This document shows positions 3,587-53,297 of a DNA stretch of 64,000 nt, piece after piece. The stretch lies in assembly GCA_964568775.1 (NCBI GenBank), contig CAZMQW010000004.1, positions 164-64,163 on the forward strand. The letters are read 5' to 3'. The position numbers were made by a program, and so were the translations under genes. Position 1 is the first letter of the stretch. Each line of letters opens with the position of its first letter. The notes beneath the pieces were generated by a model that saw only the letters and a list, made by a program, of their open reading frames with translations, was not told the DNA's origin and ran no database searches. The stretch is from an uncultured Candidatus Saccharibacteria bacterium (GTDB lineage Bacteria > Patescibacteriota > Minisyncoccia > Minisyncoccales > MHMH01).

Positions 3587-3596
3587 ATGATAATAT
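3569..3596 (+). promoter_or_regulatory. rplJL promoter
   Basis: TTGACA (3569-3574), 16-nt spacer, TAATAT (3591-3596). It lies within the 3' end of the upstream CDS. Confidence 0.5.
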
Positions 3597-3602
3597 TAAT
3601 AT

Positions 3603-3702
3603 ATCCACAGACAGCAGGCAATTTATAAGTCCTGCCGAGGATAAAATAATCGAGATTGAATCTCTTTGTTTGTCTGTGGATCAACCACAGATTTTTAATT
3701 AT
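3603..3702 (+). promoter_or_regulatory. structured 5' leader of rplJ (L10-leader-like autoregulatory element)
   Basis: An 11-bp closing stem (ATCCACAGACA 3603-3613 with TGTCTGTGGAT 3671-3681) encloses two hairpins (GCAGG/CCTGC and GAGAT/ATCTC). Its position directly upstream of rplJ fits the known L10 leader. Confidence 0.5.
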
Positions 3703-6415: not shown

Positions 6416-6417
6416 AA

Positions 6418-6873
6418 TTACTTGACAATGCGCCATTCAATATCTTCTTCTTTCCCGGCAAACTCCAGCCATTCGTCGTACTCGTTGATCACGTACCATT
6501 TCCTTTTAGTTTCCGACCAAACCATGTGATTATTATTGAAATAAGGCTTTTTAACTATTTCTTTCGGTTTCAACCTGTCCAATTCCAGCCATTTCTTGAA
6601 AACGGTCTCAATGGCGTAATCCAAGCCTCTTGAGTTGGCCCACTGAGCCACCTTATCAACAGCCTCTTTGGCTTTTTTGACTGAGCCTGCCAGAGTTAAA
6701 AGCTGTTTGGCCGGCCGGGTGAATCTTGAATAGATAATTTTCTTCTTCTTGGCATCCTTTTTAATCTGTGTCAAAGTCAGCCCTTTACTGTAAAAGTAAT
6801 GGTTGACGATTTCCTGAATGTCGGTTTCTTTCTGGAGCTGTTTTTTTGTTTTCTTTTTCTTTCTTTTATTCAT
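6418..6873 (-). CDS. hypothetical basic protein (151 aa, Lys-rich N-terminus)
   Basis: Clean ORF. MNKRKKKKTKKQLQ... no family recognised. Confidence 0.55.
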   Translation of the reverse strand: MNKRKKKKTKKQLQKETDIQEIVNHYFYSKGLTLTQIKKDAKKKKIIYSRFTRPAKQLLTLAGSVKKAKEAVDKVAQWANSRGLDYAIETVFKKWLELDRLKPKEIVKKPYFNNNHMVWSETKRKWYVINEYDEWLEFAGKEEDIEWRIVK

Positions 6874-8975: not shown

Positions 8976-9034
8976 AAAGACAATAAAGCAAGAGGCCAAA
9001 GGTCGATTCTTATACCAACCAAAAATACTTTACT

Positions 9035-9199
9035 ATGGATTTCTCGACTATCATTTTAATAATTGCCGCTGTTGTGCTGGTTGCTTTGGCTGTTTTCCTT
9101 TCGACCAGAAAGAAGGGCCCCCGCTTGCCGCAAAAACCAATGGGACCGGCTACGCCGCCTTCTTCGCCGCCTCCACCGCCAGCCACACCGTCAGCTTAG
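9035..9199 (+). CDS. possible small membrane protein with a Pro-rich tail (54 aa, below the track cutoff)
   Basis: Hand translation gives MDFSTIILIIAAVVLVALAVFLSTRKKGPRLPQKPMGPATPPSSPPPPPATPSA. It is in a different frame from track ORFs 8833 and 9063. Confidence 0.4.
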   Translation: MDFSTIILIIAAVVLVALAVFLSTRKKGPRLPQKPMGPATPPSSPPPPPATPSA

Positions 9200-9713: not shown

Positions 9714-11093
9714 ATGAAAAGGATTTTAACTATTGAAACAACCAAATATGTCGGGGAAAAGGTTAAGCTTTTCGGCTGGGTCAATACTCGGCGGGACCAC
9801 GGTCAGATAATTTTCATTGATTTAAGAGACAGGGCCGGATTGGTCCAGATTGTTTTCCCGGCCAAAACCGCCCACTCAATCAGGCCGGAGTGGGTGATTG
9901 CTGTTGAAGGAAAAGTCAAAGCCAGGCCTACAGGCATGCAGAATCCCAAAATGGCTACGGGCAAGATTGAGGTTGCAGCTGAAAAACTGGAAGTTCTCTC
10001 GAAAGCCAAAACCCTGCCTTTCAGTATTGATACTCCAGGTTATGAAATATCAGAGGAAAAACGTTTACAATACCGCTATTTGGATTTACGCCGAGCCAGG
10101 CTAAAGAAAAACTTGGCTGTCCGGCACCAGGTTATTCAGTTTATCAGGGACTTTTTAGCCAAAGAAGAATTCTGTGAAATCGAAACTCCGATTTTGACCA
10201 AATCAACGCCCGAGGGAGCTCGGGATTTTTTAGTACCTTCCCGCTTGCAGCCGGGCAAGTTTTACGCTCTGCCCCAAAGCCCCCAGCAGTACAAACAGAT
10301 GCTGCAGGTGGCCGGCTACGAGAGATACTTCCAAATTGCCAGATGTTTAAGGGACGAAGATCCCCGGGCTGACCGGCAGGCCGAACACACGCAGCTGGAT
10401 TTGGAAATGAGTTTTGTTGACCAGGAAGATATTCTAAGTTTAACTGAAAACTTGTATGCTCAGATGGTCAAGAAGCTTTTCCCTGGCAAGAAAATAACCA
10501 AAACTCCTTTTCCCCGGATCAGCTACGCCGAAGCCATGAAAAAATACCGGACCGACAAACCTGACCTGAGAAAAAATAAAAAGAATGCTGACGAACTGGC
10601 TTTTTGTTTTGTGGTTGATTTTCCCATGTTTGAATGGCACAAGGAAGAAAAAAAATGGGGGGCTGTGCATCATCCTTTCACCCGACCACAGACGACTGAA
10701 ATCAATAAGATTAAGAAGCAGCCAGAAAAAGTTTTGGCTCACCAGTACGACTTTGTTTTGAACGGTGCCGAAATCGGCGGTGGAAGCTTGCGGACAATTG
10801 ATTTAGCTGTTTTAACCGCTGTTTTTGAGGTTTTGGGCCACAAAAAACAAGACATTAAGAAAAATTTCAAACAATATTTCGAAGCTTTCACTTATGGAGT
10901 ACCGCCTCACGGTGGCATTGCCCCGGGGATTGACCGGTTTTTGGCCGTGGCTTTGGGCGAACCCAACATTAGGGAAGTGATTGCTTTTCCCAAGACCGGG
11001 GACAATCGGGATTTAATGATGGATGTGCCTTCTGAAGTTTCTCCCCGACAATTAAAAGAGCTTCATTTGAAAACAACCAAAAAGAAGCAATGA
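9714..11093 (+). CDS. aspS: aspartate--tRNA ligase, bacterial-type sequence but without the large insertion (GAD) domain
   Basis: FYALPQSPQQYKQMLQVAGYERYFQIARCLRDEDPRADRQAEHTQLDLEMSF, and motif 3 GGIAPGIDRFLAVALG. It is only 459 aa, and DKPDLR runs almost directly into VVDFPMFEW. Confidence 0.9.
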   Translation: MKRILTIETTKYVGEKVKLFGWVNTRRDHGQIIFIDLRDRAGLVQIVFPAKTAHSIRPEWVIAVEGKVKARPTGMQNPKMATGKIEVAAEKLEVLSKAKTLPFSIDTPGYEISEEKRLQYRYLDLRRARLKKNLAVRHQVIQFIRDFLAKEEFCEIETPILTKSTPEGARDFLVPSRLQPGKFYALPQSPQQYKQMLQVAGYERYFQIARCLRDEDPRADRQAEHTQLDLEMSFVDQEDILSLTENLYAQMVKKLFPGKKITKTPFPRISYAEAMKKYRTDKPDLRKNKKNADELAFCFVVDFPMFEWHKEEKKWGAVHHPFTRPQTTEINKIKKQPEKVLAHQYDFVLNGAEIGGGSLRTIDLAVLTAVFEVLGHKKQDIKKNFKQYFEAFTYGVPPHGGIAPGIDRFLAVALGEPNIREVIAFPKTGDNRDLMMDVPSEVSPRQLKELHLKTTKKKQ

Positions 11094-21844: not shown

Positions 21845-21943
21845 AGGCAGGGGAGGTACTTGACAGGGCTTTTGGCCCTGTTATTGTATATATAGGGAAC
21901 GTCGCACAATGTTAGTAAAGCGATATATAATATAAGCACTAAT

Positions 21944-22900
21944 ATGACCAGGTCTAATACCCCTATTATCAAGCATATTCCTGACTTCCTTGACTATTGC
22001 GAGGTTGAGAAAGGTTTAGCTGATAAAACCCAGGAAAATTATCAGAGATATTTAAATAAGTTTATCGGCTGGCTGAAAAAGACCAAGAAGCAGGATCTCA
22101 AACCCCACGAGCTCTCGGCCGATGACATCTGGGCTTACAGGCTCTATTTATCACGCTCCCAGGATGAAAAGGGCCGTATATTGAAGAGAACCACCCAAAA
22201 CTACTATCTAATAGCTCTGAGGGCCATTTTGGGCTATTTTGTGGCCAAAGACGTGGTTTCCATCCCCCCGGGCAAAATAACCCTGCCAAAGGACGTTAGA
22301 ACCCAAAAAACCGTTAAATTCCTTACCTTAGAGCAGGTTGAGAAACTTTTGCTGGCTCCGGACATAAAGACCAAGCCAGGGCTGAGAGACAGGGCTATTT
22401 TGGAGGCTCTTTTTTCCACTGGCTTGAGGATAGCTGAACTGGTGGCTCTGAATAAAGAGCAGTTCACCAACATAAAAGACAAGAAGGATCTGGAACTTGG
22501 CATCATCGGCAAAGGCGGCACTCCCCGGACCGTTTATTTTTCTGAAAGAGCCCTGCTCTGGCTCAGGAAATATCTGGATAGCCGCCAAGACAAAGAAAAA
22601 CCCTTGTTCGTCCATTATAAGGCCAGGAAAGACTCAAACAGCCGGCTGACAGCCCGCTCCATGGAGAGAATCATCAAAAAATACGCTCTGTTGGCTGGCG
22701 TGCCCATATTTACCACCCCTCATACTCTGCGTCACAGCATGGCTACAGATTTGCTCAACCAGGGGGTTGATTTGAGGACCATCCAGGAATTTCTGGGCCA
22801 CCGCAGCATTATCAGCACCCAGATCTACACCCACGTTACCAACAAGCGCCTGAGGGATATCCACCGCCAGTTCCACGGGGGCAAAAATCTCAAAAAATAG
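21944..22900 (+). CDS. tyrosine recombinase, XerC/XerD-like
   Basis: N-terminal SAM-like domain. Catalytic region GLRIAEL...HTLRHSMATDLLNQGVDLRTIQEFLGHRSIISTQIYTHV. Confidence 0.85.
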   Translation: MTRSNTPIIKHIPDFLDYCEVEKGLADKTQENYQRYLNKFIGWLKKTKKQDLKPHELSADDIWAYRLYLSRSQDEKGRILKRTTQNYYLIALRAILGYFVAKDVVSIPPGKITLPKDVRTQKTVKFLTLEQVEKLLLAPDIKTKPGLRDRAILEALFSTGLRIAELVALNKEQFTNIKDKKDLELGIIGKGGTPRTVYFSERALLWLRKYLDSRQDKEKPLFVHYKARKDSNSRLTARSMERIIKKYALLAGVPIFTTPHTLRHSMATDLLNQGVDLRTIQEFLGHRSIISTQIYTHVTNKRLRDIHRQFHGGKNLKK

Positions 22901-23043: not shown

Positions 23044-23067
23044 AATCATACTATATGTCGCACAATA

Positions 23068-23283
23068 TTACTCCCCTTTTACCTCAACCTGTTTCTTTTT
23101 GCTGAAAAAGAAGATATAGATAATCTCCAGAATGGCCAGGGTGTTAAGGATAAGGATGGCGATAAACCACTTCTTGTGGCTGTTTTTGGCGGCCCGCCAA
23201 AGCGCTATCCCCTTCCAGGGTAGAACCCATAAAACAAGCAGGTAGATATACAATTGATTTTCCAAAAGAAACTGCTCCGTCAT
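23068..23283 (-). CDS. small two-TM membrane protein (DUF5652-like by recollection)
   Basis: LPWKGIALWRAAKNSHKKWFIAILILNTLAILEIIYIF. Confidence 0.55.
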   Translation of the reverse strand: MTEQFLLENQLYIYLLVLWVLPWKGIALWRAAKNSHKKWFIAILILNTLAILEIIYIFFFSKKKQVEVKGE

Positions 23284-38925: not shown

Positions 38926-39345
38926 TTACAAATCAACCAAATAATTTTTTAAGAATTGCTCAACCGCCATAACGGTTTCTTTTTTTAACTTGGGCGGACT
39001 TTCAGCCACCCAAACTGCAAAATTATAGAGTTCTTTATTGTCAACTTTCAACCACCTCTTGTTTTTATGAAGAAAAAGAAAGAGCGTCGTCATAGCGACT
39101 CTCTTATTGCTATTCTGGAAGGGGTGATTTTTAACCATCAAATAAAAAAGAATCGCCGCCTTCCCGGTGAATCCTTTATAAACCGGCTTTCTTTCAAACG
39201 TCTGAAAAGGAACTATCAGAGAACTTTCCAAAATATTGGGGAAACGAGTGGTAAAATCAGGTATCGGCTCGCTGTAGGTCATTAATTCTCTGGCCAGTCT
39301 AAAGGCAGTGTATTCCACTTCGGCAACAGATAAGGTTTTTATCAT
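38926..39345 (-). CDS. doc: Fic/Doc-family toxin (death-on-curing-like)
   Basis: HPFQNSNKRVA matches the Doc variant of the Fic motif. 4-nt overlap with the upstream HTH gene. Confidence 0.7.
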   Translation of the reverse strand: MIKTLSVAEVEYTAFRLARELMTYSEPIPDFTTRFPNILESSLIVPFQTFERKPVYKGFTGKAAILFYLMVKNHPFQNSNKRVAMTTLFLFLHKNKRWLKVDNKELYNFAVWVAESPPKLKKETVMAVEQFLKNYLVDL

Positions 39346-39599
39346 GTCGTACCAAGTAATTTTAATGTTTCTTTGTACTCGGCAACCGTTTTCTTAACCG
39401 CTTTTTCAACCTCTAGTTTTTCCTGCTTGCTCAGCTCTTTTCCCAGAATCTCCCCCACATCCTTCTTGTCAATAATGAAATTCCGGCCAACCTTTGTCGC
39501 TTTAATTTTCCCGCCCTTAATCTTTTTAAAAACCGCTATCCGGCTAATACCCAATATCTTTGCTAATTCGGTTGTTGAAAGGAATTTTTTGTCTTCCAT
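39342..39599 (-). CDS. excisionase/MerR-type HTH protein, probable antitoxin of Doc
   Basis: LSTTELAKILGISRIAVFKKIKGGKIKATKVGRNFIIDKKDV. Confidence 0.6.
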   Translation of the reverse strand: MEDKKFLSTTELAKILGISRIAVFKKIKGGKIKATKVGRNFIIDKKDVGEILGKELSKQEKLEVEKAVKKTVAEYKETLKLLGTT

Positions 39600-41614: not shown

Positions 41615-42451
41615 TTATCTTAACAGGGTCTTCGCCTCTTTAACCAAGGCGCCAATCTTTTTGACCGGTATATTGAAAGCTCGGCCGAATCTCTGCGTGT
41701 TTATCTTCAAAACGTCCTCGGCCAGCATTATGTTCCTGCGGATGAATGCTTCTTTGACGTATCCTCTCAACGAAGGAAGAATGGTCACGGGATAAAGCTT
41801 TCTTTCCTCTATCAGACGCTCCAATCCCCTGTTCCTGGGAAACTTCCAGCCCAGAAGCTCAATGCCCGCGCATAAGGCGTATTTTACGGCCCGGTTGGTG
41901 AACTTGGTGTTGGTCACCATAATTGTCTTTGTTTCCAGCCTTTTTCCTTTAAATCGTGAACCTCCTTTAATATCGAGGTAGCGGGCGTAGTTGGCTAGCA
42001 CATCCTTGGTATGGACTCTTTCGCCAGGCAGGTTGCGGTATTTGCACTCGCCGACATAAAAGACATTACCCTTCTTAGCTGTAAAGTCTATTTCGTGGCC
42101 GGACAGGCACCGGCCCGACAAATACTGGTTCGTTTTGACTTTAAACCCCTCTTCCCTGAAGATTTCTCCAATGTACTTTTCAAAAGGAAACCCGGTCGGC
42201 CCCAGCTTCCTCATCCCGTCCTTTAAAGAAAACCTCAAAGCCGACTGGTTGTTTTTCTTGGCCAGTAGACTTTTTACCCGGTTGAAGATGCGGGACGTCT
42301 TCATCCCGGGCCGAACCTCTTTTTGTACGGTCCCGGCTATTTCTTCAGCCAAAGACCGGGAAGCGCCGACCCTCCTGGCCGAATCGTAAACCTTTTTGAA
42401 AGAAAAAGGCTCTTTTTCGCTTCTTGAATTAATAATATAAATGGGAACCAT
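41615..42451 (-). CDS. ATP-cone domain fused to an Mrr-like PD-(D/E)xK endonuclease domain
   Basis: The N-terminal KEPFSFKKVYDSARRVGAS...AEEIAGTVQKEV is ATP-cone-like. It is followed by FEKYIGEIFREEGF...GHEIDF...VGECKY. Confidence 0.65.
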   Translation of the reverse strand: MVPIYIINSRSEKEPFSFKKVYDSARRVGASRSLAEEIAGTVQKEVRPGMKTSRIFNRVKSLLAKKNNQSALRFSLKDGMRKLGPTGFPFEKYIGEIFREEGFKVKTNQYLSGRCLSGHEIDFTAKKGNVFYVGECKYRNLPGERVHTKDVLANYARYLDIKGGSRFKGKRLETKTIMVTNTKFTNRAVKYALCAGIELLGWKFPRNRGLERLIEERKLYPVTILPSLRGYVKEAFIRRNIMLAEDVLKINTQRFGRAFNIPVKKIGALVKEAKTLLR

Positions 42452-42464
42452 TTGGGTATTTCTT

Positions 42465-42650
42465 TTAAGGTGATCCTATGCCCAGGTCTCGACAAATTTT
42501 CTTAGCTAAAAAGTTATCGATTTCGTTATGCCGAGGAACAGTAGATGATTTCTTCACCAAAGGATTAAAAAAGACGCTGTGTTTAGCGCCTTCTCTAACA
42601 AGAATGCAATTATTTTTTACAATATGCCTGATTAAACCGTTCCGTCTCAT
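42465..42650 (-). CDS. hicA: HicA-family mRNA interferase toxin
   Basis: REGAKHSVFFNP...STVPRHNEIDNFLAKKICRDLGI. Confidence 0.75.
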   Translation of the reverse strand: MRRNGLIRHIVKNNCILVREGAKHSVFFNPLVKKSSTVPRHNEIDNFLAKKICRDLGIGSP

Positions 42651-42871
42651 TTTAAAGAAACCGAAAGGGGTTCCCGGATTACTTTTCCTTTAGGAAGTTC
42701 TTTTTTATTAATAATTCGGTTGGTTTCCAGGATTAGCGAAAGAGCCTCTTTGAGGTTTTCTTTTACCTCCCGCAGACTTCTTCCCTGAGTATTAACCCCG
42801 GGTATCTCTTCCACCCAACCCAAATACCATTTTCCGCTTTTTTTATAGATGGCCGTGAATTGTTTCACCAT
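42647..42871 (-). CDS. hicB: HicB-family antitoxin
   Basis: FTAIYKKSGKWYLGWVEEIPGVNTQGRSLREVKENLKEAL. 4-nt overlap with hicA. Confidence 0.75.
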   Translation of the reverse strand: MVKQFTAIYKKSGKWYLGWVEEIPGVNTQGRSLREVKENLKEALSLILETNRIINKKELPKGKVIREPLSVSLK

Positions 42872-45895: not shown

Positions 45896-45930
45896 AAAAT
45901 CAAGTCCGTCCGTCTCTATATTGTCAGACG
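45896..45930 (-). repeat. island intergenic element, copy a
   Basis: Plus strand: aaaatcaagtccgtccgtcTCTATATTGTCagacg. Confidence 0.5.
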
Positions 45931-46010
45931 CAAAATAAAAAGGTACTGACATTATGCCAGCACCTACTCGAATATCCCTTTAAGTGTTTTATGCCACTCC
46001 CTTGATTCAG

Positions 46011-46613
46011 CTAACCAAATAATTCTTTCATCATCTTCTTGATGTCTTCTGATTGGCCAACCTTTTTGGTCACCCCGTTTGTCGTTTCCGAATAGCTTAT
46101 GGAAACGACGGGTGTCGTGTGATGAACGTTCGCGCGCGACCAGATGTTTTCGACCGTTTCAAGCTTTCTGATCTCCTGAATTTCTTCCTGACTGAAATAG
46201 TTCAGAAGCATTGTTTTGCCCGTGCGCAGTAGCATTATCGCGGCATAGGTAAACGGGAGATCCGTTCCCTCTTTGAAAACCGGCCGGTGCAGAGCTAACT
46301 GTTTCTGAAGGGGCGCAACGAGAGAAGACGTTTTCTCCAAAGGCTCGCCCAGCATGTAAACCGCTCCGCTCTCCGTTTGGACCCTTATGGCCTTATCGAC
46401 AAACTCTTGAGGCACGAGCCGCCAAACGGCTCCTAAGGGTTTGGCTATCCCGGTCTCGTCGAAATCCACCATTCTTGCAATCCAGCATTCGAAACAAAAG
46501 TGCCCTGAAATATTCTGGGGAACCATCTCGCCGTAATAGATGAAACTGCAGCCCTTGAAACCGCAATCATCGCATAACATTTCTGGGAAATATCCCCTTT
46601 TTGTATCAGCCAT
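46011..46613 (-). CDS. hypothetical protein (200 aa) with an N-terminal CxxC...CxxC module
   Basis: SD gcaaGGAGGtggataATG. CDDCGFKGCSFIYYG...CFECW. Confidence 0.55.
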   Translation of the reverse strand: MADTKRGYFPEMLCDDCGFKGCSFIYYGEMVPQNISGHFCFECWIARMVDFDETGIAKPLGAVWRLVPQEFVDKAIRVQTESGAVYMLGEPLEKTSSLVAPLQKQLALHRPVFKEGTDLPFTYAAIMLLRTGKTMLLNYFSQEEIQEIRKLETVENIWSRANVHHTTPVVSISYSETTNGVTKKVGQSEDIKKMMKELFG

Positions 46614-46706
46614 TATCCACCTCCTTGCATAGTTGACTTATCGCTTTATTTAAAAAGAAAGGTTTTTCTTCCTCCTTACTAATTTGTATATTAAACAATC
46701 CATCTT

Positions 46707-46741
46707 AAAAATCAAGCTCCGACTGTCTATATTGTCGGATG
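46707..46741 (-). repeat. island intergenic element, copy b
   Basis: Plus strand: aaaaatcaagctccgactgTCTATATTGTCggatg. Confidence 0.5.
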
Positions 46742-46794
46742 TAAAAATAAAATGGGCAGGGATGTCATATAACTTCCCTGCCTTTGTTTGTTGG

Positions 46795-47832
46795 TTAGTA
46801 TAGAGTAACATTCTCCGGGTTATACAGTTCGGTAATTGACTGGCCCAAGACTGTCCTTTTGACGGCTTCGGCAAGCAAAGATTCTACCCACAGCACGACG
46901 AACTTGGACCTGCCGGAAATCATTTGAGCGGTGTTAGGTATGCTGTTGGTGACGACGAACTTCTCTATGGATGAAAATTCCAGTTTCCGAATCAAGCTGT
47001 CTTTGGCCATTTTTTTGTCGGCAAAGACGGCATGAGGAGCTATCATCCAAACCGATCGGCCGCCCTCTTCTAAGACCTTGGCCGCGTCTTTGATAGCGGT
47101 CTTGCCGGTCAGGATTTCATCGTCAATCATCAGACAGAACTTGTCTCCGACGTCGCCGATAATGCCCTTAATTTCCGGCTCTTCCCGGTCATCGCGCCTG
47201 CCCTTGTCAATGTAGGCTGTCGGAATATGCAGAAGTCTAGCAAAGTCACTGTAGCGCTTGCTCGCTCCTTCATCGGGAAAAACGAGCACGCTTTCTTCTT
47301 TCGGCTGGAAGGTGAAAACGTTTTTTTCCAGATAATCAAGCAGAATGTAAATGCTTGTTATCTCGTCAGCCACCGGATCGAAGTAGTGTTTAAGATGATC
47401 GTCGTGAGGATCAAGCAGCAGAATCCGGTTGATGCCGAAAGAATAATTCAGGATGTGAGCCAGGCGATAGGCCATAGTGGAAATGCGGGGCTGATTCTTT
47501 TTGTCCGACCTGGCGTAAGGATAGTAAGGAAAGACAACCAGAATGTCGGCTGGCCTGGCGCCCTTCAAGGCGTCAAGAAGCGCAAAAAGCTCAATTATCC
47601 TCTCGTTGACCGGCGGCACTTGGGTATGAATCACCACTACGAAATGGTCCCGGACGTTTTCCACCCGCACTTGGAGATTTTCATTACTGAAGCGAGCAAC
47701 CTGACTTCTCCCCAGCTTTAGGCAACCGTCTGCTTGCAGGTTTTTAGGTAAACGGGTTTGCAAAGCTTTGCAGATTTCTTTTGCCAAGACATCAGAACCT
47801 CTCGTGCTAAAAACCTTAACAGGATACGGCAT
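46795..47832 (-). CDS. prs: ribose-phosphate pyrophosphokinase family protein (divergent)
   Basis: VFPYYPYARSDKK and MIDDEILTGKT correspond to the Prs Y(F/A)RQDR and PRPP-binding loops. SD atGGAGGGAGGaaaagaatATG. Confidence 0.8.
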   Translation of the reverse strand: MPYPVKVFSTRGSDVLAKEICKALQTRLPKNLQADGCLKLGRSQVARFSNENLQVRVENVRDHFVVVIHTQVPPVNERIIELFALLDALKGARPADILVVFPYYPYARSDKKNQPRISTMAYRLAHILNYSFGINRILLLDPHDDHLKHYFDPVADEITSIYILLDYLEKNVFTFQPKEESVLVFPDEGASKRYSDFARLLHIPTAYIDKGRRDDREEPEIKGIIGDVGDKFCLMIDDEILTGKTAIKDAAKVLEEGGRSVWMIAPHAVFADKKMAKDSLIRKLEFSSIEKFVVTNSIPNTAQMISGRSKFVVLWVESLLAEAVKRTVLGQSITELYNPENVTLY

Positions 47833-47948
47833 ATTCTTTTCCTCCCTCCATTATTAATTTAGAACCATCCTTTATGGTTCTTTTGAATCTTGCCACTTTC
47901 TAACTGTTTTGTCCACCTCCCTTTAAATCAACTTTGTACAAGATGCAA

Positions 47949-47984
47949 CTTCCGTAACTCAATCCCTGTTATGTCGTGTAATGT
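47949..47984. repeat. 36-nt repeat R1
   Basis: cttccgtaactcaatccctgttatgtcgtgtaatgt, identical to R2 at 33 of 36 nt. Confidence 0.6.
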
Positions 47985-48074
47985 TATCTGATGGTCAGGA
48001 GGTCGTTCGGCCTACCTGATGCACTGATAGTTAAGGGAGGGCCTCCGACCCACTAGATGAGTTGTGGGATAATC

Positions 48075-48113
48075 TACAAAAAAGCTCCAATCAAGTATGT
48101 GTGATTTGGAGCT
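48075..48113 (-). terminator. intrinsic terminator
   Basis: AGCTCCAA (48083-48090) pairs with TTGGAGCT (48106-48113). T6 follows on minus. Confidence 0.7.
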
Positions 48114-48132
48114 ATTATTCTGGTTATCCCTT

Positions 48133-48582
48133 TTAGGGACGCAATATAACCCTTTTAATGGCGTGCAAAGGGACTCTCCAACTGGTGCCAGCGAAATTGA
48201 CTTCAACCTTTTTATTTTTATCTTCTTTATCTGGTGCTCTGAGATACTGGGCCACGAGACAGAAACTTATATCTGGATTTTCCAATATCCCTTCCGCTCT
48301 TATTTTCTCGGTTTTTTCCTTGGCGCCGGCGATCATAGCCCAGTCAGAATATCCTTTACAATTAGCAACAGCGCTGATGTCAACCTCTAAAAAAATTCTG
48401 GCGTCTTTGCTTATCTTGCCGCAGTAGCAATGGACCGATAACCGAAAAATGTGGCAGATTTCTTGATTTACAAGGTTCTCGTGGATAGACCTCCGCAGTT
48501 CGTCTTACTCTTTCTTAGGCCTTCCTTGCCAGCTAAGAACATCTAAATCAATACAGTGAAACCACGCTGAATTTTGAGCCAT
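48133..48582 (-). pseudogene. 150-codon reading frame with a strong SD, interrupted by an in-frame TAA at codon 26
   Basis: aaaGGGAGGaaaatcaaATG at 48582. MAQNSAWFHCIDLDVLSWQGRPKKE, then TAA (48507-48505), then DELRRSIHENLVNQ...MIAGAKEK... in the same frame. No ATG, GTG or TTG occurs between 48504 and 48336. Confidence 0.5.
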
Positions 48583-48637
48583 TTGATTTTCCTCCCTTTA
48601 TAGAATTCGCTAAAAGTAGTTTACAGTATTTCAATAA

Positions 48638-48661
48638 GAAAAGTCAACTCCGACCGTCTAT
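48638..48661 (-). repeat. island intergenic element, proximal half (copy c2)
   Basis: Plus strand: gaaaagtcaactccgaccgtctat. Confidence 0.45.
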
Positions 48662-48663
48662 GG

Positions 48664-48699
48664 CTTCCGTAACTCAGTCCCTGTTTTGTCGTGCAATGT
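48664..48699. repeat. 36-nt repeat R2
   Basis: cttccgtaactcagtccctgttttgtcgtgcaatgt. Confidence 0.6.
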
Positions 48700-48722
48700 A
48701 TTAGGATAATCAGACGGTTAAT

Positions 48723-48748
48723 CCGCCGTCCGTCTATATTGTCGAATG
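48723..48748 (-). repeat. island intergenic element, distal half (copy c1)
   Basis: Plus strand: ccgccgtccgTCTATATTGTCgaatg. It shares ccgtctat with c2, 62 nt away. Confidence 0.45.
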
Positions 48749-48814
48749 TAAAATAAAAGGGCCGTGTGGTTTCTACGAGGAAAGCACGGCCTTAATAAAC
48801 AATCCCTTTTTATA

Positions 48815-49390
48815 TTATCTCGTATTTATTATCCTTTCACCGGCATCTTCGGGCAGGTTCTTGCCACCGGGACCAATAATTCTCATGGGCAACCGCTTCA
48901 CACCGCCGGATTTTGCTATTTCCTCCATCTGCTTTTTTATTTCAGTGAAGCGAGGATCTTCTTTGGGCGGTACGTATGAGGGGCCGATGACCATCCGCCA
49001 TTTCTTATGGGAGGGACACGATGGCGAAGGACAATCTCCAGGGCTTCCTGCTATTTCGGAGTAATGACAGTCTGCACAATGGACGGTTCCTCCGATAACT
49101 CCCGGCGGACCCATGCTGTACCAGTGCTCACCGAGATACCATATCAGCAGCTCAATCGTCTCTAGAAACTCCTTTCGCGTTTTGCTGTCGAACGATTTCA
49201 GGGTAACGTTCTTGTCGTGAAGCTCAAAAAGAGCATCCTGGATTTTATTTTCGATACTGATTCGCTTCACTCCTTTAAGCCTGTTCAGCAACATTACCGT
49301 TTTGACGCGAAGGCCTTTGGGCAGATCGTTTACTTTATCTCCGTCTACCCTGCTTTCCCTGACATTATCTTCCACTCTTATGATTTGCAT
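48815..49390 (-). CDS. hypothetical protein (191 aa) with a Cys/His cluster
   Basis: SD aaaaGGAGGctaagcgATG. HCADCH...CPSPSCPSH. Confidence 0.55.
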   Translation of the reverse strand: MQIIRVEDNVRESRVDGDKVNDLPKGLRVKTVMLLNRLKGVKRISIENKIQDALFELHDKNVTLKSFDSKTRKEFLETIELLIWYLGEHWYSMGPPGVIGGTVHCADCHYSEIAGSPGDCPSPSCPSHKKWRMVIGPSYVPPKEDPRFTEIKKQMEEIAKSGGVKRLPMRIIGPGGKNLPEDAGERIINTR

Positions 49391-49487
49391 CGCTTAGCCT
49401 CCTTTTATTGCGATATATTTTTAAATCTACGCGTTCTCTTTCACGCCGTCTGTCCGAAAGAATAAAGAGTTCTTTTTTTCGCCCCTT

Positions 49488-49721
49488 TCAATCATCATGG
49501 CGTTCCATTTTTATTCCCGGCTGGAAACGACCTTCGTACACAAGACGATCCCTCTTTCTGCAACGGGGGCAATAGGCAAATATTTTAGGGGTTACTTTTT
49601 CTTTTTTCTCTTCCCCTAGACGTAATGCGCCGTTGCAATCTTTGCAGGTTTTTTCTCCGGCAATCTCTATTTTCACATCTTCCAAACCGAGAGATCTGGC
49701 TATTTTTTTAAAGTTCGGCAT
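49488..49721 (-). CDS. small zinc-ribbon protein (77 aa)
   Basis: SD taaGGAGGtgagataATG. CKDC...CPRC. Confidence 0.55.
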   Translation of the reverse strand: MPNFKKIARSLGLEDVKIEIAGEKTCKDCNGALRLGEEKKEKVTPKIFAYCPRCRKRDRLVYEGRFQPGIKMERHDD

Positions 49722-49758
49722 TATCTCACCTCCTTATATCAAATTACACAATCCTGAT

Positions 49759-49795
49759 AAAAAAACAAGTCCTCCCGTCCTATGTTGCCGGATAT
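49759..49795 (-). repeat. island intergenic element, copy d (variant)
   Basis: Plus strand: aaaaaacaagtcctcccgtcctatgttgccggatat. Confidence 0.4.
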
Positions 49796-49836
49796 AAAAA
49801 AGCCAGCTGGCCCCGGCTCCAATCACCCCGACTAAT

Positions 49837-50865
49837 CTATTTAGGAACCACTCTTTTTATCATAAAAACTATATTCTCATTTGCATTACGGTATCCTATT
49901 TCAATTTTAGGGTTCTTCTTATGCCAAACTCTAAAAATCTCATCCGCAAAAGCCTGGCCCACCGTATCCACCCCCTTAAAATCTAAAATTATTTTATTGA
50001 ATTTATCCAAGCCGCTGACTATTCTTCTTGCCTGGGAACGGGATATAAATTCGGGATTAATTTTATAAAGCGACACCTTTGTCTCCGTTTTGGAAAATTC
50101 AAAAGCCGGACCAGAATATTTTCTGAATATATCATTCAAATTTCTTCGGTAATCCAAACTAATATTAAAACCGACTTTGGTGCCTTTAATCCTCGCTGCA
50201 TCTTTTATGAATACATCGTTCAAAATATTATCGAATATCAATTTCTTGGCCGAAGACCGAATAACCAATTTCTCAGCTGCTTTTGAGGTAAAGAAAATCC
50301 CCTCCCCGCTATGTTCTTTCGGGACGGTAGTCTGCTTTCCTTTCAATAAATCTTGTATTGCCTCCAGCTCGTTCTTCAACTTTCTTTTTTTCATTATATT
50401 AACAAAGATTCCTATACCCCAATCCCTGACTTCAAACTCGACGCCTCCCCTGTCTTTTTTTATCGTTACCCGTATCTTATCTGAAATAGAGTGCTCGATT
50501 GCGTTGTTGAGCATTTCTGTAAAAGCATACCGTACGATACTCAGAACATTCTTGGGAAGGCTGAATAAGATGCCGGTATTTTTCTCTATCTCGTCGAAAA
50601 CCAAATCTTCCGAAACGTCTTTATTCTTAAAATAACGCCGAGCAGTCAGAATTGATCTTTTGGCCGACAAATCTGCCTTATTTTTAGCAGACACATAACG
50701 GGCCATGTTCGCTTTGCCGATAAGAGATATCTTTCCTTCTTGCTTTAACTTTTGGAAAAATCTATTAATATAGGCGCGAGAAAAACCGGTTTCCTTCACA
50801 ATATCGGAAACTTTAACTCTTTTATTTTTATTTATTTTTGCCAATATCAGCTTATAAATATCCAT
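49837..50865 (-). CDS. wHTH + GHKL (anti-sigma-kinase-like ATPase) + STAS-like (DUF4325-type) fusion protein
   Basis: N-terminal VKVSDIVKETGFSRAYINRFFQKLKQEGKI; middle FTEMLNNAIEHS...VRDWGIGIF; C-terminal ILDFKGVDTVGQAFADEIFRVW. Confidence 0.6.
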   Translation of the reverse strand: MDIYKLILAKINKNKRVKVSDIVKETGFSRAYINRFFQKLKQEGKISLIGKANMARYVSAKNKADLSAKRSILTARRYFKNKDVSEDLVFDEIEKNTGILFSLPKNVLSIVRYAFTEMLNNAIEHSISDKIRVTIKKDRGGVEFEVRDWGIGIFVNIMKKRKLKNELEAIQDLLKGKQTTVPKEHSGEGIFFTSKAAEKLVIRSSAKKLIFDNILNDVFIKDAARIKGTKVGFNISLDYRRNLNDIFRKYSGPAFEFSKTETKVSLYKINPEFISRSQARRIVSGLDKFNKIILDFKGVDTVGQAFADEIFRVWHKKNPKIEIGYRNANENIVFMIKRVVPK

Positions 50866-50902
50866 ATGTTTGTTGACGACTTTATTGTATTATTAAAATT
50901 GA

Positions 50903-50924
50903 AAGTTGTCAACAAGTTGTCAAC
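50903..50924. repeat. perfect tandem 11-bp direct repeat over the promoter of the wHTH gene (candidate operator)
   Basis: aagttgtcaac occurs twice in tandem. The core GTTGNCAAC is palindromic. A third near-copy, gttgacgac, lies at 50871-50879 next to the ATG. Confidence 0.45.
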
Positions 50925-50930
50925 ATATAT

Positions 50931-50973
50931 GGTCAAGTATAGCCTGTCTCCGACCGTTTATGTTGTACGGATG
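50931..50973 (-). repeat. island intergenic element, copy e (variant)
   Basis: Plus strand: ggtcaagtatagcctgtctccgaccgtttatgttgtacggatg. Confidence 0.4.
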
Positions 50974-51025
50974 TAAAATAAAAGGCCTGCCTTTCGGTTT
51001 AAATCCGATTGGTAGGCCATAATAG

Positions 51026-51334
51026 CTAATCATCGACAGCCGGTCTAAATCTTGACGCAACCCATCTAATGTCGCTGTGCAGCTGGCGGAGATGCTTTAT
51101 ATTTGTTCTGTTGTAAACCCCGATCGGAGATCCCTCGTAAGGAATTGCATTATATCTGCCGTTGCCGCCGATTTTATAGGTTCGGCCTTCGAAAGTCCAT
51201 GTTCCTGCCACCTTGTCAACGATTACCCCTTCCGGCACTCCCGCTATTAAGGTCGAAGCGGTGGTATTCACAGGCCAGACAAGCGATATTAAGTTCTTTT
51301 TTTTACACCTCGGCTTTAACTCTTCTGCTGCCAT
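51026..51334 (-). CDS. hypothetical protein (102 aa)
   Basis: I chose the start at MAAEEL because the first ATG of the track ORF is part of the SD (atGAAGGAGGctaaaATG). Confidence 0.5.
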   Translation of the reverse strand: MAAEELKPRCKKKNLISLVWPVNTTASTLIAGVPEGVIVDKVAGTWTFEGRTYKIGGNGRYNAIPYEGSPIGVYNRTNIKHLRQLHSDIRWVASRFRPAVDD

Positions 51335-51402
51335 TTTAGCCTCCTTCATTCTGGCAAAATCTTAAAATTATTAAAGAATATAATAATTATGAATCTTTCA
51401 TA

Positions 51403-51435
51403 AGAAAAGTCAAGGCTCCGGCCCTCTATATCATC
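51403..51435 (-). repeat. island intergenic element, copy f (variant, overlaps the acyP stop)
   Basis: Plus strand: agaaaagtcaaggctccggccctctatatcatc. Confidence 0.4.
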
Positions 51436-51709
51436 TCACTTTAAACGTATTGAATTCGCCTTGATAATCCTCCCAACTGAGCCGAAAGTCGTCCACCTGG
51501 GCAAAAGCCGGGCCCTGCCTGGTCCAATCAACCATTTCCTCCACTTTATCTTTCTCTCCCTCAAACACGGCTTCCAGCCTACCGTCAGGCAGATTGCGCA
51601 CCCAGCCGGTAACCGACAAGGCCAAAGCTTTTTTGAGAGTGTTGTTCCTGAAAAACACTCCCTGGACCCTGCCCGAAACCAATAAATGGCATCTGATTTT
51701 TTCAGTCAT
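51431..51709 (-). CDS. acyP: acylphosphatase
   Basis: VSGRVQGVFFRNNTLKKALALSVTGWVRNLPDGRLEAVFEG. Confidence 0.85.
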   Translation of the reverse strand: MTEKIRCHLLVSGRVQGVFFRNNTLKKALALSVTGWVRNLPDGRLEAVFEGEKDKVEEMVDWTRQGPAFAQVDDFRLSWEDYQGEFNTFKVR

Positions 51710-51760
51710 AAATTTCAGTAAAACTACTTTAATTTTATGTTCTTAAAACGTCCATGTCAA

Positions 51761-51784
51761 AATAAAAACCGCCGAAAGGCGGGG
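51761..51784 (-). terminator. intrinsic terminator
   Basis: CCGCC gaaa GGCGG (51769-51782) with a T-run on minus. Confidence 0.7.
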
Positions 51785-51829
51785 TGATCAAGGCCAAGCC
51801 TTAACCAATGAACGTTTGTTATTGAATCA

Positions 51830-52045
51830 TTATTTCTCTTCCCTGCTGATTTCCTGTTTTTCTTTAGTGCTGAGAGACGTCAGCCAGAAAATGAAAGGCC
51901 GGCGCAGTTTGTCTATGGACCAATTGTTATCTTTGAAAAGGGACGCCTTAGCCACCTTGAAATGAGACAGCAAAGAGGGGGTCGCCTGCAGGTTGTCAGA
52001 AGCCAATCGGTTGTGTTCCTCTAAAAATTGCTGTTTCTTGGTCAT
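51830..52045 (-). CDS. hypothetical protein (71 aa)
   Basis: TATTAT lies 6 nt upstream of the ATG. No family recognised. Confidence 0.45.
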   Translation of the reverse strand: MTKKQQFLEEHNRLASDNLQATPSLLSHFKVAKASLFKDNNWSIDKLRRPFIFWLTSLSTKEKQEISREEK

Positions 52046-52064
52046 GCTTCTATAATACGCTTAT

Positions 52065-52367
52065 TCACGAAAAAAGCAATACCGCCGGTTCGAGACTAAA
52101 AAACCTTGAATAAAATAAAAAGTGGGTCGGTGTTACCGCTCCACTTCTCTTGAAAACTAAGGGACCTGCCCTTTCCAGCTTCTTCCAGGCTTCTAACTCT
52201 TTTTGATGTCTTTCTTCTATTCTGGCGTCTACCGCAATTGCATAGTTCATTTCAAACTGACGGAGCTTTTCATGGTCAATCGGTTCGGTAAACTGAATGG
52301 CGGAACCGCATATTCTTACCGCCGAACCCTCTTTAACTGCTTCCTGACAAGCCTTAGCAAGATTCAT
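52065..52367 (-). CDS. hypothetical protein (100 aa)
   Basis: SD taaGGAGGtattaacaATG. Confidence 0.5.
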   Translation of the reverse strand: MNLAKACQEAVKEGSAVRICGSAIQFTEPIDHEKLRQFEMNYAIAVDARIEERHQKELEAWKKLERAGPLVFKRSGAVTPTHFLFYSRFFSLEPAVLLFS

Positions 52368-52417
52368 TGTTAATACCTCCTTATAATAGGTCTAATTCTA
52401 TAATGCGCTTTATAATT

Positions 52418-52453
52418 GAAAAATCAAGTCCGGCCGGAATTATATTGCAAGGC
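52418..52453 (-). repeat. island intergenic element, copy g (variant)
   Basis: Plus strand: gaaaaatcaagtccggccggaattatattgcaagg. Confidence 0.45.
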
Positions 52454-52514
52454 TGTTTTCAAAAAGAAAACGCCCCAGGGAAGGGACGCTTCCTGTCGGA
52501 TCGACCCCGAGCAT

Positions 52515-52859
52515 TTAGATCCCCTTCTTTTCCTTGTCGTACTTTCTCCAAGCTTCGGCGATAGACGGCTCAACTTTGTCCAGCTCCGCCAGGGTCTTTT
52601 CCCTGAGTTCCGAGGTGGTTATCTCTTCTTGGCTCTCAGCCAGCTGGATTATGGTTGAGGCCACCTGCTCGGCCACTTCGTTCTTCCTCTCCTCCGGCAG
52701 ATCGGCTTCGCGGGCGGCGGCCAGGATTGAATTCTTTATTTTTTCGGGGGCAAAGGGCTGCCTTATCCCGTCTTTTTTAGTAACTTCTTTAGCCATAATG
52801 GATGAATATTTGTTTAATTTAGAACTGCGACCTTTTTTGAGAATACTTAATTTTCCCAT
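52515..52859 (-). CDS. stand-alone ATP-cone domain protein (start uncertain: 52859 or 52796)
   Basis: VTKKDGIRQPFAPEKIKNSILAAAREADL...EITTSELRE resembles the ATP-cone of NrdR and RNR. Confidence 0.55.
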   Translation of the reverse strand: MGKLSILKKGRSSKLNKYSSIMAKEVTKKDGIRQPFAPEKIKNSILAAAREADLPEERKNEVAEQVASTIIQLAESQEEITTSELREKTLAELDKVEPSIAEAWRKYDKEKKGI

Positions 52860-52916
52860 TTTATGGCCTTCCTGTCAAAATAAAAAGCCCCGCAATTTAC
52901 GTTTTGAGAAACGGGG

Positions 52917-53237
52917 CTAAACCAGAACTTCCGTGCTGGCTTCCAGCGTATTAAACCTTTTTTGTTTTTTTAACTTATTAAGCTTCTGTCCTTCTAAAAG
53001 CCAGGTGAAAATGTCGTAGACCGGTGATTGCTGCCCTTCGAGAATTATCTCTAAATATTGAAAGGATCTTTCCTGCCCGAGGATTGTCTCCGGCTCTTGG
53101 CTTGAAGTAGTGCTAATAATGCAGGAAACGCGGCCTTTGGTAGATTCTTCTTTTATTAATTGTTCAAGGTTCTTGTTTAAAGCTTCCGTTTTGATGTTGA
53201 TCTTAAGCCTGATTTTCGCTTTGCCGCTGCCAGCCAT
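52917..53237 (-). CDS. hypothetical protein (106 aa)
   Basis: I chose the start at MAGSGKAK, after the SD aaaaGGAGGtgagcggaATG. Confidence 0.5.
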   Translation of the reverse strand: MAGSGKAKIRLKINIKTEALNKNLEQLIKEESTKGRVSCIISTTSSQEPETILGQERSFQYLEIILEGQQSPVYDIFTWLLEGQKLNKLKKQKRFNTLEASTEVLV

Positions 53238-53277
53238 TCCGCTCACCTCCTTTTGATACAAATTAGCAGGAATCACT

Positions 53278-53297
53278 GAAAAGTCAAGGTTATAAAA
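53278..53297 (-). repeat. island intergenic element, copy h (promoter-proximal part only)
   Basis: Plus strand: gaaaagtcaaggttataaaa. Confidence 0.3.

Follow-up and report, generated by a model that had tools for sequence, protein, structure and literature searches.

The repeated intergenic element in a window of 64 kb (the whole stretch of DNA analysed) from an uncultured, Nealsonbacteria-like member of Patescibacteria is real, and a junction site of single-gene units appears to describe it better than a shared promoter or regulator site does. Seven intergenic copies of an ~45-nt module, all on the minus strand, lie between 45.9 and 52.5 kb, the rest of the 64 kb being free of them, and the same core family occurs at non-homologous loci in other Nealsonbacteria-like genomes. 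On comparison with a few contigs of related genomes, we give about even chances to the core being a cassette-junction recombination site, integron-like in its logic, with neither attC nor IntI, and perhaps used by Xer.

Parts of the element and its copies in the window

Read on the coding strand, the module opens with a terminator tail of generic type (TTTTATTTTAC), continues with a core of ~24 nt that is specific to it (GTCTGACAATATAGACGGTCGGAC or ATCCGACAATATAGACAGTCGGAG) and closes with the generic −35 of the clade, CTTGAYTTTT. The latter also serves as the ordinary −35 region elsewhere in the window (2233+, 24793− and 44701−) and in related genomes, and the T-rich tail is likewise common to the organism's terminators; 10-mers of the type CTTTTTATTT are the commonest in the window. 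Since both flanks are generic, the element-specific part amounts to ~24–26 nt. The objection that the motif is simply a genome-wide promoter consensus would apply to the −35 part only. The core reads GTCTGACAA-TATAGA-CGGTCGGAC with inverted outer ends GTC...GAC; the dyad symmetry of its arms is weak (about 6/9) and absent from several copies. A 24-nt frame, GTC-N18-GAC, is common to copies from two related genomes, L067 and L071, and to the conserved site just upstream of xer, and copy a of the window fits it given a 2-nt insertion.

A profile built from the window copies and scanned over the 64 kb yielded seven loci with E = 1.4e-11 to 5.8e-5 (eight scored pieces, because copy c is split; Table 1), the next best having E = 1.2. 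These E-values are circular, as the same copies trained the profile; independent support came from an exact 11-mer, TCTATATTGTC, present three times in the 64 kb and only within the array, from a core regular expression with four of its five matches in the array, on a single strand, and from an untrained locus of another genome that scored E = 5e-11. The initial annotation had counted at least eight copies, and at every listed position the minus (coding) strand does read as described; seven stand, and the eighth, copy h, was rejected from the family, being a −35 box (TTGACTTTT) with no core. The splitting of copy c is genuine: a 62-nt insert lies between duplicated ATAGACGG(A/T)CGG, holds a GTCGTGCAATGT box when read on the plus strand, and has homology to unit X2 of L067 as well as to the composite unit at 47925-48050, with which it has ACATTRCACGACAWAACAGGGAYTGAGTTACGGAAG in common.

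Table 1. Positions of the element copies, the adjoining boxes and the xer locus in the 64-kb window
Feature	Position	Strand	E	Sequence and context
Copy a core	45904..45929	-	2.1e-11	GTCTGACAATATAGAGACGGACGGAC; after 200-aa gene terminator
Copy a −35	45898-45903	-		TTGATT; directly after core
Copy b core	46717..46740	-	1.4e-11	ATCCGACAATATAGACAGTCGGAG; after prs terminator
−35 of 200-aa gene	46708-46715	-		TTGATTTT; after copy b core and one C (46716)
Degenerate core and long composite unit	47925..48050	-		TCTAGTGGGTCGGAGG; upstream of prs
−35 after c2	48642-48647	-		TTGACT (TTGACTTT, 48640-48647); serves pseudogene 48133-48582
Copy c, 3′ piece (c2)	48648..48661	-	5.8e-5	ATAGACGGTCGGAG
Insert splitting copy c	48662..48723	-		62 nt, GATTAACCGTCTGATTATCC...CAGGGACTGAGTTACGGAAGCC
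Copy c, 5′ piece (c1)	48724..48747	-	1e-8	ATTCGACAATATAGACGGACGGCG; after 191-aa gene terminator
Copy d core	49769..49793	-	4.8e-9	ATCCGGCAACATAGGACGGGAGGAC, diverged; HTH-HATPase gene terminator before, −35 TTGTTT of 77-aa gene after
HTH-HATPase gene promoter	50884-50912	-		TTGACA-17-TACAAT, the real promoter; ~35 nt beyond copy e
Copy e core	50948..50971	-	6.4e-9	TCCGTACAACATAAACGGTCGGAG; after 107-aa gene terminator
Copy f	51414..51435	-	4e-5	GATGATATAGAGGGCCGGAGCC, left arm lacking; overlaps acylphosphatase gene stop codon, then −35 TTGACT
Copy g	52428..52453	-	2e-6	GCCTTGCAATATAATTCCGGCCGGAC, diverged; then −35 TTGATT of 100-aa gene
Former copy h (53278-53297)	53280..53287	-		TTGACTTT; generic −35 only
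Site R1	21901..21924	+		GTCGCACAATGTTAGTAAAGCGAT; 24 bp, inverted outer arms
Xer-like tyrosine recombinase gene	21944..22900	+		At cumulative GC skew maximum
Site R2	23057..23080	+		GTCGCACAATATTACTCC...; downstream of xer, after terminator; conserved in L076

The seven co-oriented copies part non-homologous genes with no paralogy, most of which have a promoter and a terminator of their own. Backbone genes common to relatives (prs, ATP-cone and acylphosphatase) lack an intact upstream copy, and most of the lineage-specific genes have one. A terminator tail, claimed earlier for every copy, precedes copies a to e; copy f has none, and the terminator before copy g lies further away. The 3′ third of the motif, rightly read earlier as a possible −35, is a good sigma-70-type −35 box, and −10-like hexamers follow 16–19 nt downstream, so every window copy stands before a promoter.

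The core follows terminators independently of promoters in related genomes

The core in relatives is oriented as the upstream gene and sits past its terminator T-run, with or without a promoter beyond it. In L067 (Ca. Nealsonbacteria, GCA_043822605.1), where 40 nt of the element match at 90% identity and orthologous proteins are 41–64% identical, a 239-aa gene beside tRNA-Glu lies between direct copies identical at 32 of 35 positions, and the first copy is found ~75 nt past the tRNA-Glu gene. L071 (GCA_043817685.1) has nine plus-strand copies within 10.7 kb, and a TTTAT/TTTAC T-run immediately precedes eight of these; at 6269-6494 and 8802-9194 the core follows a terminator, the next gene is convergent and a promoter is absent, and the distance from core to next −35 in this locus ranges from 0 to about 110 nt. 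Piece c1 of the window and L2, X2 and X3 of L067 likewise have no adjoining −35. Tandem and composite forms of the core also occur in relatives, and in L074 a different, much longer repeat family occupies the equivalent position.

Gene-bearing indels and breakpoints between strains fall at the site. An ~750–800-bp segment with a 141-aa gene is present in L071 and absent from L072, its two flanking copies having a 54-nt overlap in common, and the divergence between L072 and L073 begins right past GGACAATCTACC. The same cassette genes also turn up in different contexts: homologues of the window's 200-aa gene (71–74% identity) and 100-aa gene (53% identity) are found in L071 and L074 as single genes between local repeats, in other neighbourhoods.

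Junction site, selfish repeat or regulator site

As a junction, the site would have the terminator of a single-gene unit before it and the −35 of the following unit after it, and would mark where units, each with its own promoter, gene and terminator, are inserted, deleted or exchanged by recombination; the T-run on its left and CTTGAYTTTT on its right would be the ordinary terminator tail and −35 of the neighbour units, packed against it. A repeat spreading with the cassettes, raised earlier as an alternative, is the version that the evidence favours. The exchange would presumably be site-specific rather than RecA-mediated between repeats, against which it counts that repeat-flanked indels are equally expected from homologous recombination between dispersed repeats.

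Such ordinary recombination between dispersed copies is all that the gene-bearing indels would amount to if the element were a selfish or neutral miniature repeat (REP/BIME- or MITE-like) accumulating just past intrinsic terminators with no role in gene capture, which we consider unlikely but worth weighing. The extragenic post-terminator position, the genome-specific variants, the tandem, inverted and composite arrangements, the gene-less insert in copy c and the replacement family of L074 all conform to it. However, no hairpin was conserved across the copies: by folding against 200 shuffles, copy b alone beat all of them, and three copies had no or negligible predicted structure. The hairpins noted earlier in copies a and b are present, in different registers. 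Terminal inverted repeats are absent, and no transposase or RAYT was found among the window ORFs screened. Moreover, the copies are limited to 6.6 kb of variable genes and not scattered over the 64 kb; they delimit single transcription units exactly, and these genes are found again as element-bounded units in other genomes. REP/BIME and other post-terminator repeats are likewise extragenic, placed at gene 3′ ends and species-specific, and form mosaic, tandem or inverted clusters that act as rearrangement substrates, but they are dispersed, whereas the copies here are restricted to variable-gene arrays, with no stable conserved palindrome, no GTAG-hairpin architecture and no RAYT gene seen.

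The initial annotation had suggested a regulator or UP-like site in the conserved part beyond the −35, and with it a regulon of the island genes. A core that binds a shared transcription factor, or acts as an UP-like element, upstream of the −35 is improbable in our view, yet several observations speak for it: six of the seven copies, and L1 and L3 of L067, abut a −35 at near-constant spacing, with the box centre 14–16 nt upstream (about −50), a spacing which the binding-site model explains more simply; the core is a W-degenerate pseudo-palindrome, CCGWCWATATWGWCGG, and is kept across genera at non-orthologous loci, as expected of a functional binding site. What turned the evidence the other way were the copies in promoter-less convergent spacers, those with no adjoining −35, the variable distance to the next −35 in L071, and the orthologous promoter of the 200-aa gene in L074 and L071, which keeps its −35, −10 and 5′ UTR, but differs just upstream of the −35 and has no adjacent core. 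In addition, the downstream genes are unrelated and mainly lineage-specific, and the stretch adjoining the −35 is rich in G+C, which a proximal UP subsite is not. The wHTH protein of the island is a poor candidate binder of the motif: its gene carries separate, operator-like GTTGACAAC repeats of its own, which accompany it in L002, and L002 lacks the island motif.

Very unlikely are decayed direct repeats of a tRNA 3′ part, left as att scars by serial integrative elements at tRNA-Glu: c2 with its −35 (GACGGTCGGAGTT-GACT) matches the variable-loop/T-arm of the L067 tRNA-Glu (GACGATCGGAGTTCGACT) at 16 of 17 aligned positions with one gap, which none of 300 shuffles equalled, and the first L067 copy lies near that gene, but c2 alone is significant, the other copies sharing ≤10 nt, the T-stem 3′ strand and acceptor end usual in att repeats are absent, and neither a tRNA gene in the window nor an integrase adjoining the arrays was found. 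Barely credible is a structured RNA or guide-RNA array (TIGR stem-loop array, sRNA or riboswitch); TIGR arrays are common in Patescibacteria and missed by standard annotation tools (PMC12045711; 10.64898/2026.09.09.750476), and the composite units hold short stems, but Rfam gave no match at E ≤ 1, the copies are dispersed between genes with no regular tandem period, the segments between conserved boxes are conserved rather than variable, no Nop-domain protein was found by Pfam among the ORFs screened, and most copies, lying past terminators and upstream of the −35, would go untranscribed.

Known systems and the candidate recombinase

Like integron gene-cassette arrays, above all those of sedentary chromosomal integrons, whose attC sites are homogeneous and species-specific, the array consists of unrelated, co-oriented, mostly single-gene units parted by one repeated site, the same genes recur in different arrays, gene-less units exist, and the site is uniform per genome and differs between genomes. 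Unlike in integrons, no IntI, attI or Pc lies beside it, there are neither RYYYAAC/GTTRRRY core sites nor the conserved attC hairpin, and the site is only ~24 nt. Integron cassettes usually lack a promoter, whereas each unit here comes with a promoter and a terminator. Putative mobile promoters, i.e. promoter propagation, defined by >50 nt at ≥80% identity (Matus-Garcia et al. 2012, PMC3488235), are comparable as homologous sequences before non-homologous CDSs, both within a genome and across genera; here one pair (a–b, 50 nt at 80%) stands at the threshold, the other pairs aligning over 9–59 nt, and the specific part is distinct from the promoter proper, being present without one in relatives. 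IMEX at dif and the pdif modules of Acinetobacter plasmids are alike in their small gene modules, short sites and lack of a module recombinase, with a conserved host Xer recombinase present, in the 9+6+9-like geometry with inverted outer ends, where the left arm resembles that of the xer-adjacent conserved site, and in the array lying within about 25–30 kb of the putative terminus. However, pdif modules alternate in orientation whereas the sites here are direct repeats, and the array is not at the candidate dif, to which the likeness is statistically weak.

The Xer-like gene, at whose locus gene orientation converges and the terminus presumably lies, is a core gene (77–88% identical across the clade) situated 23 kb from the array; no other recombinase was found among the window ORFs screened, and none adjoins the array. 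Site R1 ends ~20 nt before the xer start codon, has a conserved counterpart in L076, GTCGCACAATAATGCTAAAGCGAC, and is a candidate dif or Xer site. Its left arm resembles that of the element, and R2 matches an L071 copy, GTCTCACAATATACC, at 13 of 15 positions, but by PWM scan the likeness of the xer-adjacent boxes to the element was not significant (R2 at rank 6 with a score of 9.1, versus a null top mean of 14.7).

As candidate catalyst, the conserved host Xer-type tyrosine recombinase may use the junction site. A circular or incoming one-copy unit would then recombine with a resident copy and come to lie between two direct copies, and repeats of this event would build up an array of unrelated, co-oriented genes parted by the site.

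Composition and distribution of the element

In the 45.9-53.3 kb region, short genes follow one another on the minus strand with spacers of 57-300 nt between them, and seven of these spacers have a coding-strand module in common, i.e. terminator hairpin - TTTTATTTTAC - ATCCGACAATATAGACGGTCGGAG - CTTGAYTTTT. A profile trained on the copies recovered seven loci (eight pieces, copy c being split) at E = 1.4e-11 to 5.8e-5, values that are circular because the same copies were used for training, while the second-tier match anywhere in the 64 kb had E = 1.2. Three further results lent independent support: TCTATATTGTC, an exact 11-mer, is present three times in the window, always inside the array region; four of the five window matches of a core regular expression fall in the array region on a single strand; and L033, an other-genome locus left out of the training, scored a profile E of 5e-11. 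The motif is real and non-random. Seven of the eight copies in the initial annotation were confirmed, and the eighth (53278-53297) proved to be merely a -35 box.

CTTGAYTTTT was also found at other putative promoters of the window (2233+, 24793- and 44701-) and in related genomes that have no core, and the T-rich tail ranks among the commonest 10-mers of the window; with the -35 and the tail both generic, the specific part comes to ~24 nt, its most conserved piece being ATAGACGGTCGGA. Two site variants were distinguished, GTCTGAC...GGTCGGAC versus GTCTCAC...GTGTGGAC. Folding did not support a DNA hairpin conserved among the copies: copy b alone beat all 200 shuffles (z = -4.5), and predicted DNA structure was absent or negligible in copies c and g and in L3, a copy from the related contig L067.

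The window is part of an NCBI MAG contig of 64.7 kb. Proteins named Candidatus Nealsonbacteria share 82% identity with its Xer-like protein, and synteny with GCA_001819335.1 extends over window 11-33 kb (66-73% nucleotide identity), so the organism is a Nealsonbacteria-like member of Patescibacteria. Genome contigs (a collection without the source genome) and metagenome contigs were scanned with ACAAYATARAN{2,6}CGGAN{1,3}TTGAYTTT. The former yielded 21 single matches in unrelated taxa, none a supported member on profile rescoring, the weak rescored values being those expected from the pattern; the latter yielded 35 matches, of which L033 was the only real one; it belongs to contig L067 (Ca. 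Nealsonbacteria, GCA_043822605.1). Two core-pattern scans of viral contigs and a megablast of the region against a phage collection gave zero matches.

In L067, a 239-aa gene adjoining tRNA-Glu lies between two direct copies (32/35 identical), the next gene has a third, degenerate copy directly against its -35, and two further cores, X2 and X3, come after that gene without any -35. The element is the top nucleotide match between the window and L067, 90% identical over 40 nt, whereas orthologous proteins are just 41-64% identical. A segment of the tRNA-Glu, variable loop plus T-arm (GACGATCGGAGTTCGACT), closely matches c2, the 3′ piece of copy c, together with its -35 (GACGGTCGGAGTTGACT), and the T-loop resembles a -35 box; a tRNA-Glu origin of the element was rejected, copy c2 alone being significant.

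Four more contigs, L071 to L074, were reached via homologues of the window 200-aa gene. L071 (GCA_043817685.1) carries nine plus-strand copies of a variant, GTCTCACAATCTACCAGTGTGGAC, in 10.7 kb, and eight of them begin directly after a TTTAT/TTTAC T-run, oriented as the upstream gene. A called 178-aa ORF of this contig begins inside a copy, its start ATG in TTTATGTCTCAC consisting of the last T-run base and the element start, so that annotation of these genomes can mistake the element for a gene start. In the corresponding position, L074 has a different, longer repeat family (..CCAATCTAAGGTTCTGAACCTGCCCTGTAGCCCCTG..AATCGCCAAGAAGGCGGTTTTTTGG), which fills most spacers between terminators and GGGGCTTGAYTTTTT promoters, and some of its units contain tRNA-like T-arm fragments (GGGGTTCGAGTCC).

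Features located in the window and in related contigs
Feature	Sequence	Position (strand)	Detail
Ribosomal protein L10 leader	window	3587-3706	Rfam RF00557, 48.6 bits; upstream of rplJ
24-bp site upstream of xer	window	21901-21924	GTCGCACAA-N6-TAAAGCGA(C/T) or GTCGCACAA-N6-TAAAGCGAY; inverted outer arms
Xer-like tyrosine recombinase gene	window	21944-22900	
Second GTCGCACAAT box, downstream of xer	window	23057-23080	
Toxin-antitoxin-type genes adjoining the array	window	38926-39599 and 42465-42871	Fic/Doc-like gene and excisionase-type HTH partner; HicA/HicB-like pair (by eye, from translations)
ATP-cone-Mrr-like fusion	window	41615-42451	
5′ UTR of 200-aa gene	window	46614-46700 (minus)	two Shine-Dalgarno-like AAGGAGG boxes; possible pairing partner CCTTTCTT
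Same 5′ UTR, conserved	L071	~9900-10000	
prs (ribose-phosphate diphosphokinase)	window	46795-47832	
Second promoter-like family, upstream of prs	window	~47850-47905 (minus)	TGGACAAAAC-N7-AAAGTGGCARAATT
Same family, four occurrences before unrelated genes	L002	~2035, ~6500, ~7670, ~10090	
ORF downstream of copy c	window	48133-48582 (minus)	one in-frame TAA (KKE*DEL)
c2 plus -35, matching tRNA-Glu	window	48630-48661	
tRNA-Glu segment	L067	4483-4555	
GTTGACAAC repeats	window	50866-50935 (minus)	two direct, one inverted/degenerate
GTTGACAAC repeats	L002	2760-2824	
178-aa ORF beginning inside a copy	L071	5329-5865	
Convergent spacers holding a copy	L071	6269-6494 and 8802-9194	
Repeat-filled spacers (examples)	L074	1509-1737, 2203-2471, 4014-4299, 10601-10786	

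Proposed exchange of gene units and known systems

Pair-wise comparison of L071 with its strain variant L072 gave two aligned blocks sharing 54 nt of element sequence where they overlap, indicating that L071 has an extra ~750-800-bp segment, with a 141-aa gene, between two copies; L072 and L073, another strain variant, part directly after GGACAATCTACC. Copy c of the window is interrupted between duplicated ATAGACGG, and its 62-nt insert shows homology to L067 unit X2 as well as to a unit upstream of prs. The window 200-aa gene was found in three different neighbourhoods, and in L071 two copies flank a homologue of the 100-aa gene (53% identity). Compared with L002, a relative that has the backbone genes, the element lies at the upstream boundary of most lineage-specific window genes, while the shared backbone genes are without an intact copy. 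The best explanation, to which we give about an even chance, is that the core is a cassette-junction recombination site common to Nealsonbacteria-like genomes.

A selfish post-terminator repeat, one of the two main rivals, appears rather unlikely. Unlike REP/BIME sequences, the copies conserve no stable imperfect palindrome, and a RAYT gene was not found among the window ORFs screened. Unlike MITEs, the element showed no TIRs, and instead of a short target-site duplication it is the 12-15-nt core itself that is duplicated at the copy c insert.

The array of unrelated, co-oriented cassettes with a repeated site between them is like an integron, but an IntI-type recombinase, attI and Pc were not found beside it, with no recombinase among the ORFs screened at 38.9-64 kb, the attC motifs RYYYAAC...GTTRRRY were absent on inspection and the hairpin is not conserved. 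The array logic is that of integrons or dif modules; the defining recombinase and sites of integrons were not found, and the resemblance to dif-type sites is equivocal. No description of such a system in the Candidate Phyla Radiation was found in the literature searched. The nearest published concept is promoter propagation, in which putative mobile promoters were defined by >50 nt aligned at >=80% identity upstream of non-homologous CDSs (PMC3488235); here copies a and b align over 50 nt at 80%, b and d over 59 nt at 76% and other pairs over 9-39 nt, and the CDSs behind the compared copies are non-homologous.

Other candidates were rejected. Tandem duplication of whole units was discarded because the island proteins are not paralogous. 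In a TIGR array, units repeat in tandem at a regular period, their spacers vary, and a Nop-domain Tas protein is encoded alongside (PMC12045711); this reading was rejected, the copies being dispersed between genes with conserved inner segments. Among the ORFs screened, the Nop domain had zero Pfam matches. CCGTCTGA resembles the Neisseria DUS; a DNA uptake sequence was rejected since the core is not over-represented, CGTCTGA occurring seven times in the window, which equals chance expectation.

Promoter readings and gene content of the array

A promoter had been proposed at the element, and this was supported: in copies a-d, f and g, TAnnnT-like hexamers lie 16-19 nt beyond TTGAYT, as in a sigma-70 promoter. 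The -35 part of the motif is an ordinary promoter element, and promoter-like sites in the region are not above shuffles (17 versus 14.8). The proposals built upon it fared differently. The suggested UP-like element would call for A+T-rich sequence at -40 to -60; positions -36 to -47 are G+C-rich (CGGNCGGAG), A+T-richness being confined to the distal box. A site for a shared regulator or class I activator is contradicted by the variable position of the core relative to the -35 and by copies that have none, namely c1 (the 5′ piece of copy c) and L2, X2 and X3 of L067; in L071, the next -35 is 0 to ~110 nt away from a copy, and two copies occupy convergent spacers in which no promoter follows. 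The suggested regulon was not borne out either, as orthologous genes in related genomes are without the core upstream. For the 200-aa gene, the window, L074 and L071 retain a conserved promoter and 5′ UTR but differ immediately ahead of the -35; and the relatives L002-L008 have prs (89-90% identity), the ATP-cone gene and the HTH-HATPase gene in common with the window, with no core found upstream of their prs and ATP-cone orthologues. A regulator or UP-like site, the other main rival, is quite improbable. The left box resembles the NrdR box and the PurBox (half-site matches), for which supporting context was not found.

The island wHTH protein is an unlikely binder of the motif, because the GTTGACAAC repeats of the HTH-HATPase gene travel with that gene and are conserved in L002. 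They surround the TTGACA-17-TACAAT promoter of this HTH-HATPase_c_2-DUF4325 gene, in which an obvious Shine-Dalgarno sequence is absent, and by their sequence arrangement, conserved with the gene in L002, they likely form an autoregulatory operator.

The genes between copies are mutually non-homologous and include prs, an ATP-cone protein, an acylphosphatase, an HTH-HATPase-STAS-like protein and several proteins without a family match. The search for a defence island gave no noteworthy PADLOC matches, Rfam searches of the whole window (gathering threshold) and the region (E <= 1) found nothing beyond the L10 leader, and the window has no tRNA genes. Side observations concern individual genes. 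At 89-90% identity to its orthologues, prs stands out from the neighbouring orthologues in the same genomes (just 58-66%), reflecting either unusually strong conservation or recent transfer. The second promoter-like family recurs in L002, and promoter modules seem to be reused as wholes in these genomes. A leader or an element of translational control may lie in the 5′ UTR of the 200-aa gene, and the interrupted ORF that copy c precedes is probably either a pseudogene or a split gene.

Xer recombinase, a candidate dif site and possible gene turnover

The sole recombinase among the window ORFs screened is the Xer-like tyrosine recombinase. Its gene coincides exactly with the peak of the cumulative GC skew and with a convergence of gene orientation, and from these two features we infer that this position is the replication terminus. 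Xer belongs to the core genes: the matches listed are 77-88% identical, thousands more fall below E = 1e-40, and its synteny is conserved. The 24-bp site ends ~20 nt before the xer start codon in the window and ~14 nt before it in L076, a relative with xer-adjacent sites; it is conserved between the two, and both xer-flanking sites are conserved in GCA_001819335.1. Judged from sequence, the xer-flanking site is a candidate dif site of Nealsonbacteria.

Xer/dif-type sites (IMEX, dif modules) have two arms with partial dyad symmetry on either side of a 6-8-bp central region. The junction element and the xer-adjacent site have a common GTC-N18-GAC frame and a similar left arm (7/9 identical between the candidate dif and the element); GTCTGACAA-TATAGA-CGGTCGGAC has 6/9 symmetric positions, several copies being without symmetry, and a PWM trained on the L067 and L071 copies did not score the xer-adjacent boxes above background. 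We hypothesize that Xer acts on the element; difSL adjoins xerS in streptococci, a parallel offered as analogy. In such a mechanism, a single, highly conserved chromosomal Xer recombinase would carry out recombination at a 24-bp dif-like site, compact single-gene cassettes with their own promoter and terminator would be inserted and excised, and repeated rounds would build variable arrays near the replication terminus. That Nealsonbacteria (Patescibacteria) have an Xer-driven, integron-like gene capture without a dedicated integrase is a doubtful proposition.

Patescibacteria have tiny genomes with few recognizable mobile elements and regulators, and nonetheless vary between strains in small genes of unknown function. 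The junction site recurs across genera and coincides with differences in gene content between strains. A short site bounding single-gene units would supply a concrete mechanism of accessory-gene turnover and would let variable cassettes be spotted in metagenome-assembled genomes by a simple sequence marker, and motifs "in front of genes" here may have arisen as scars of recombination, with no regulatory function. Were Xer the catalyst, a housekeeping recombinase would have been co-opted for chromosomal gene capture.
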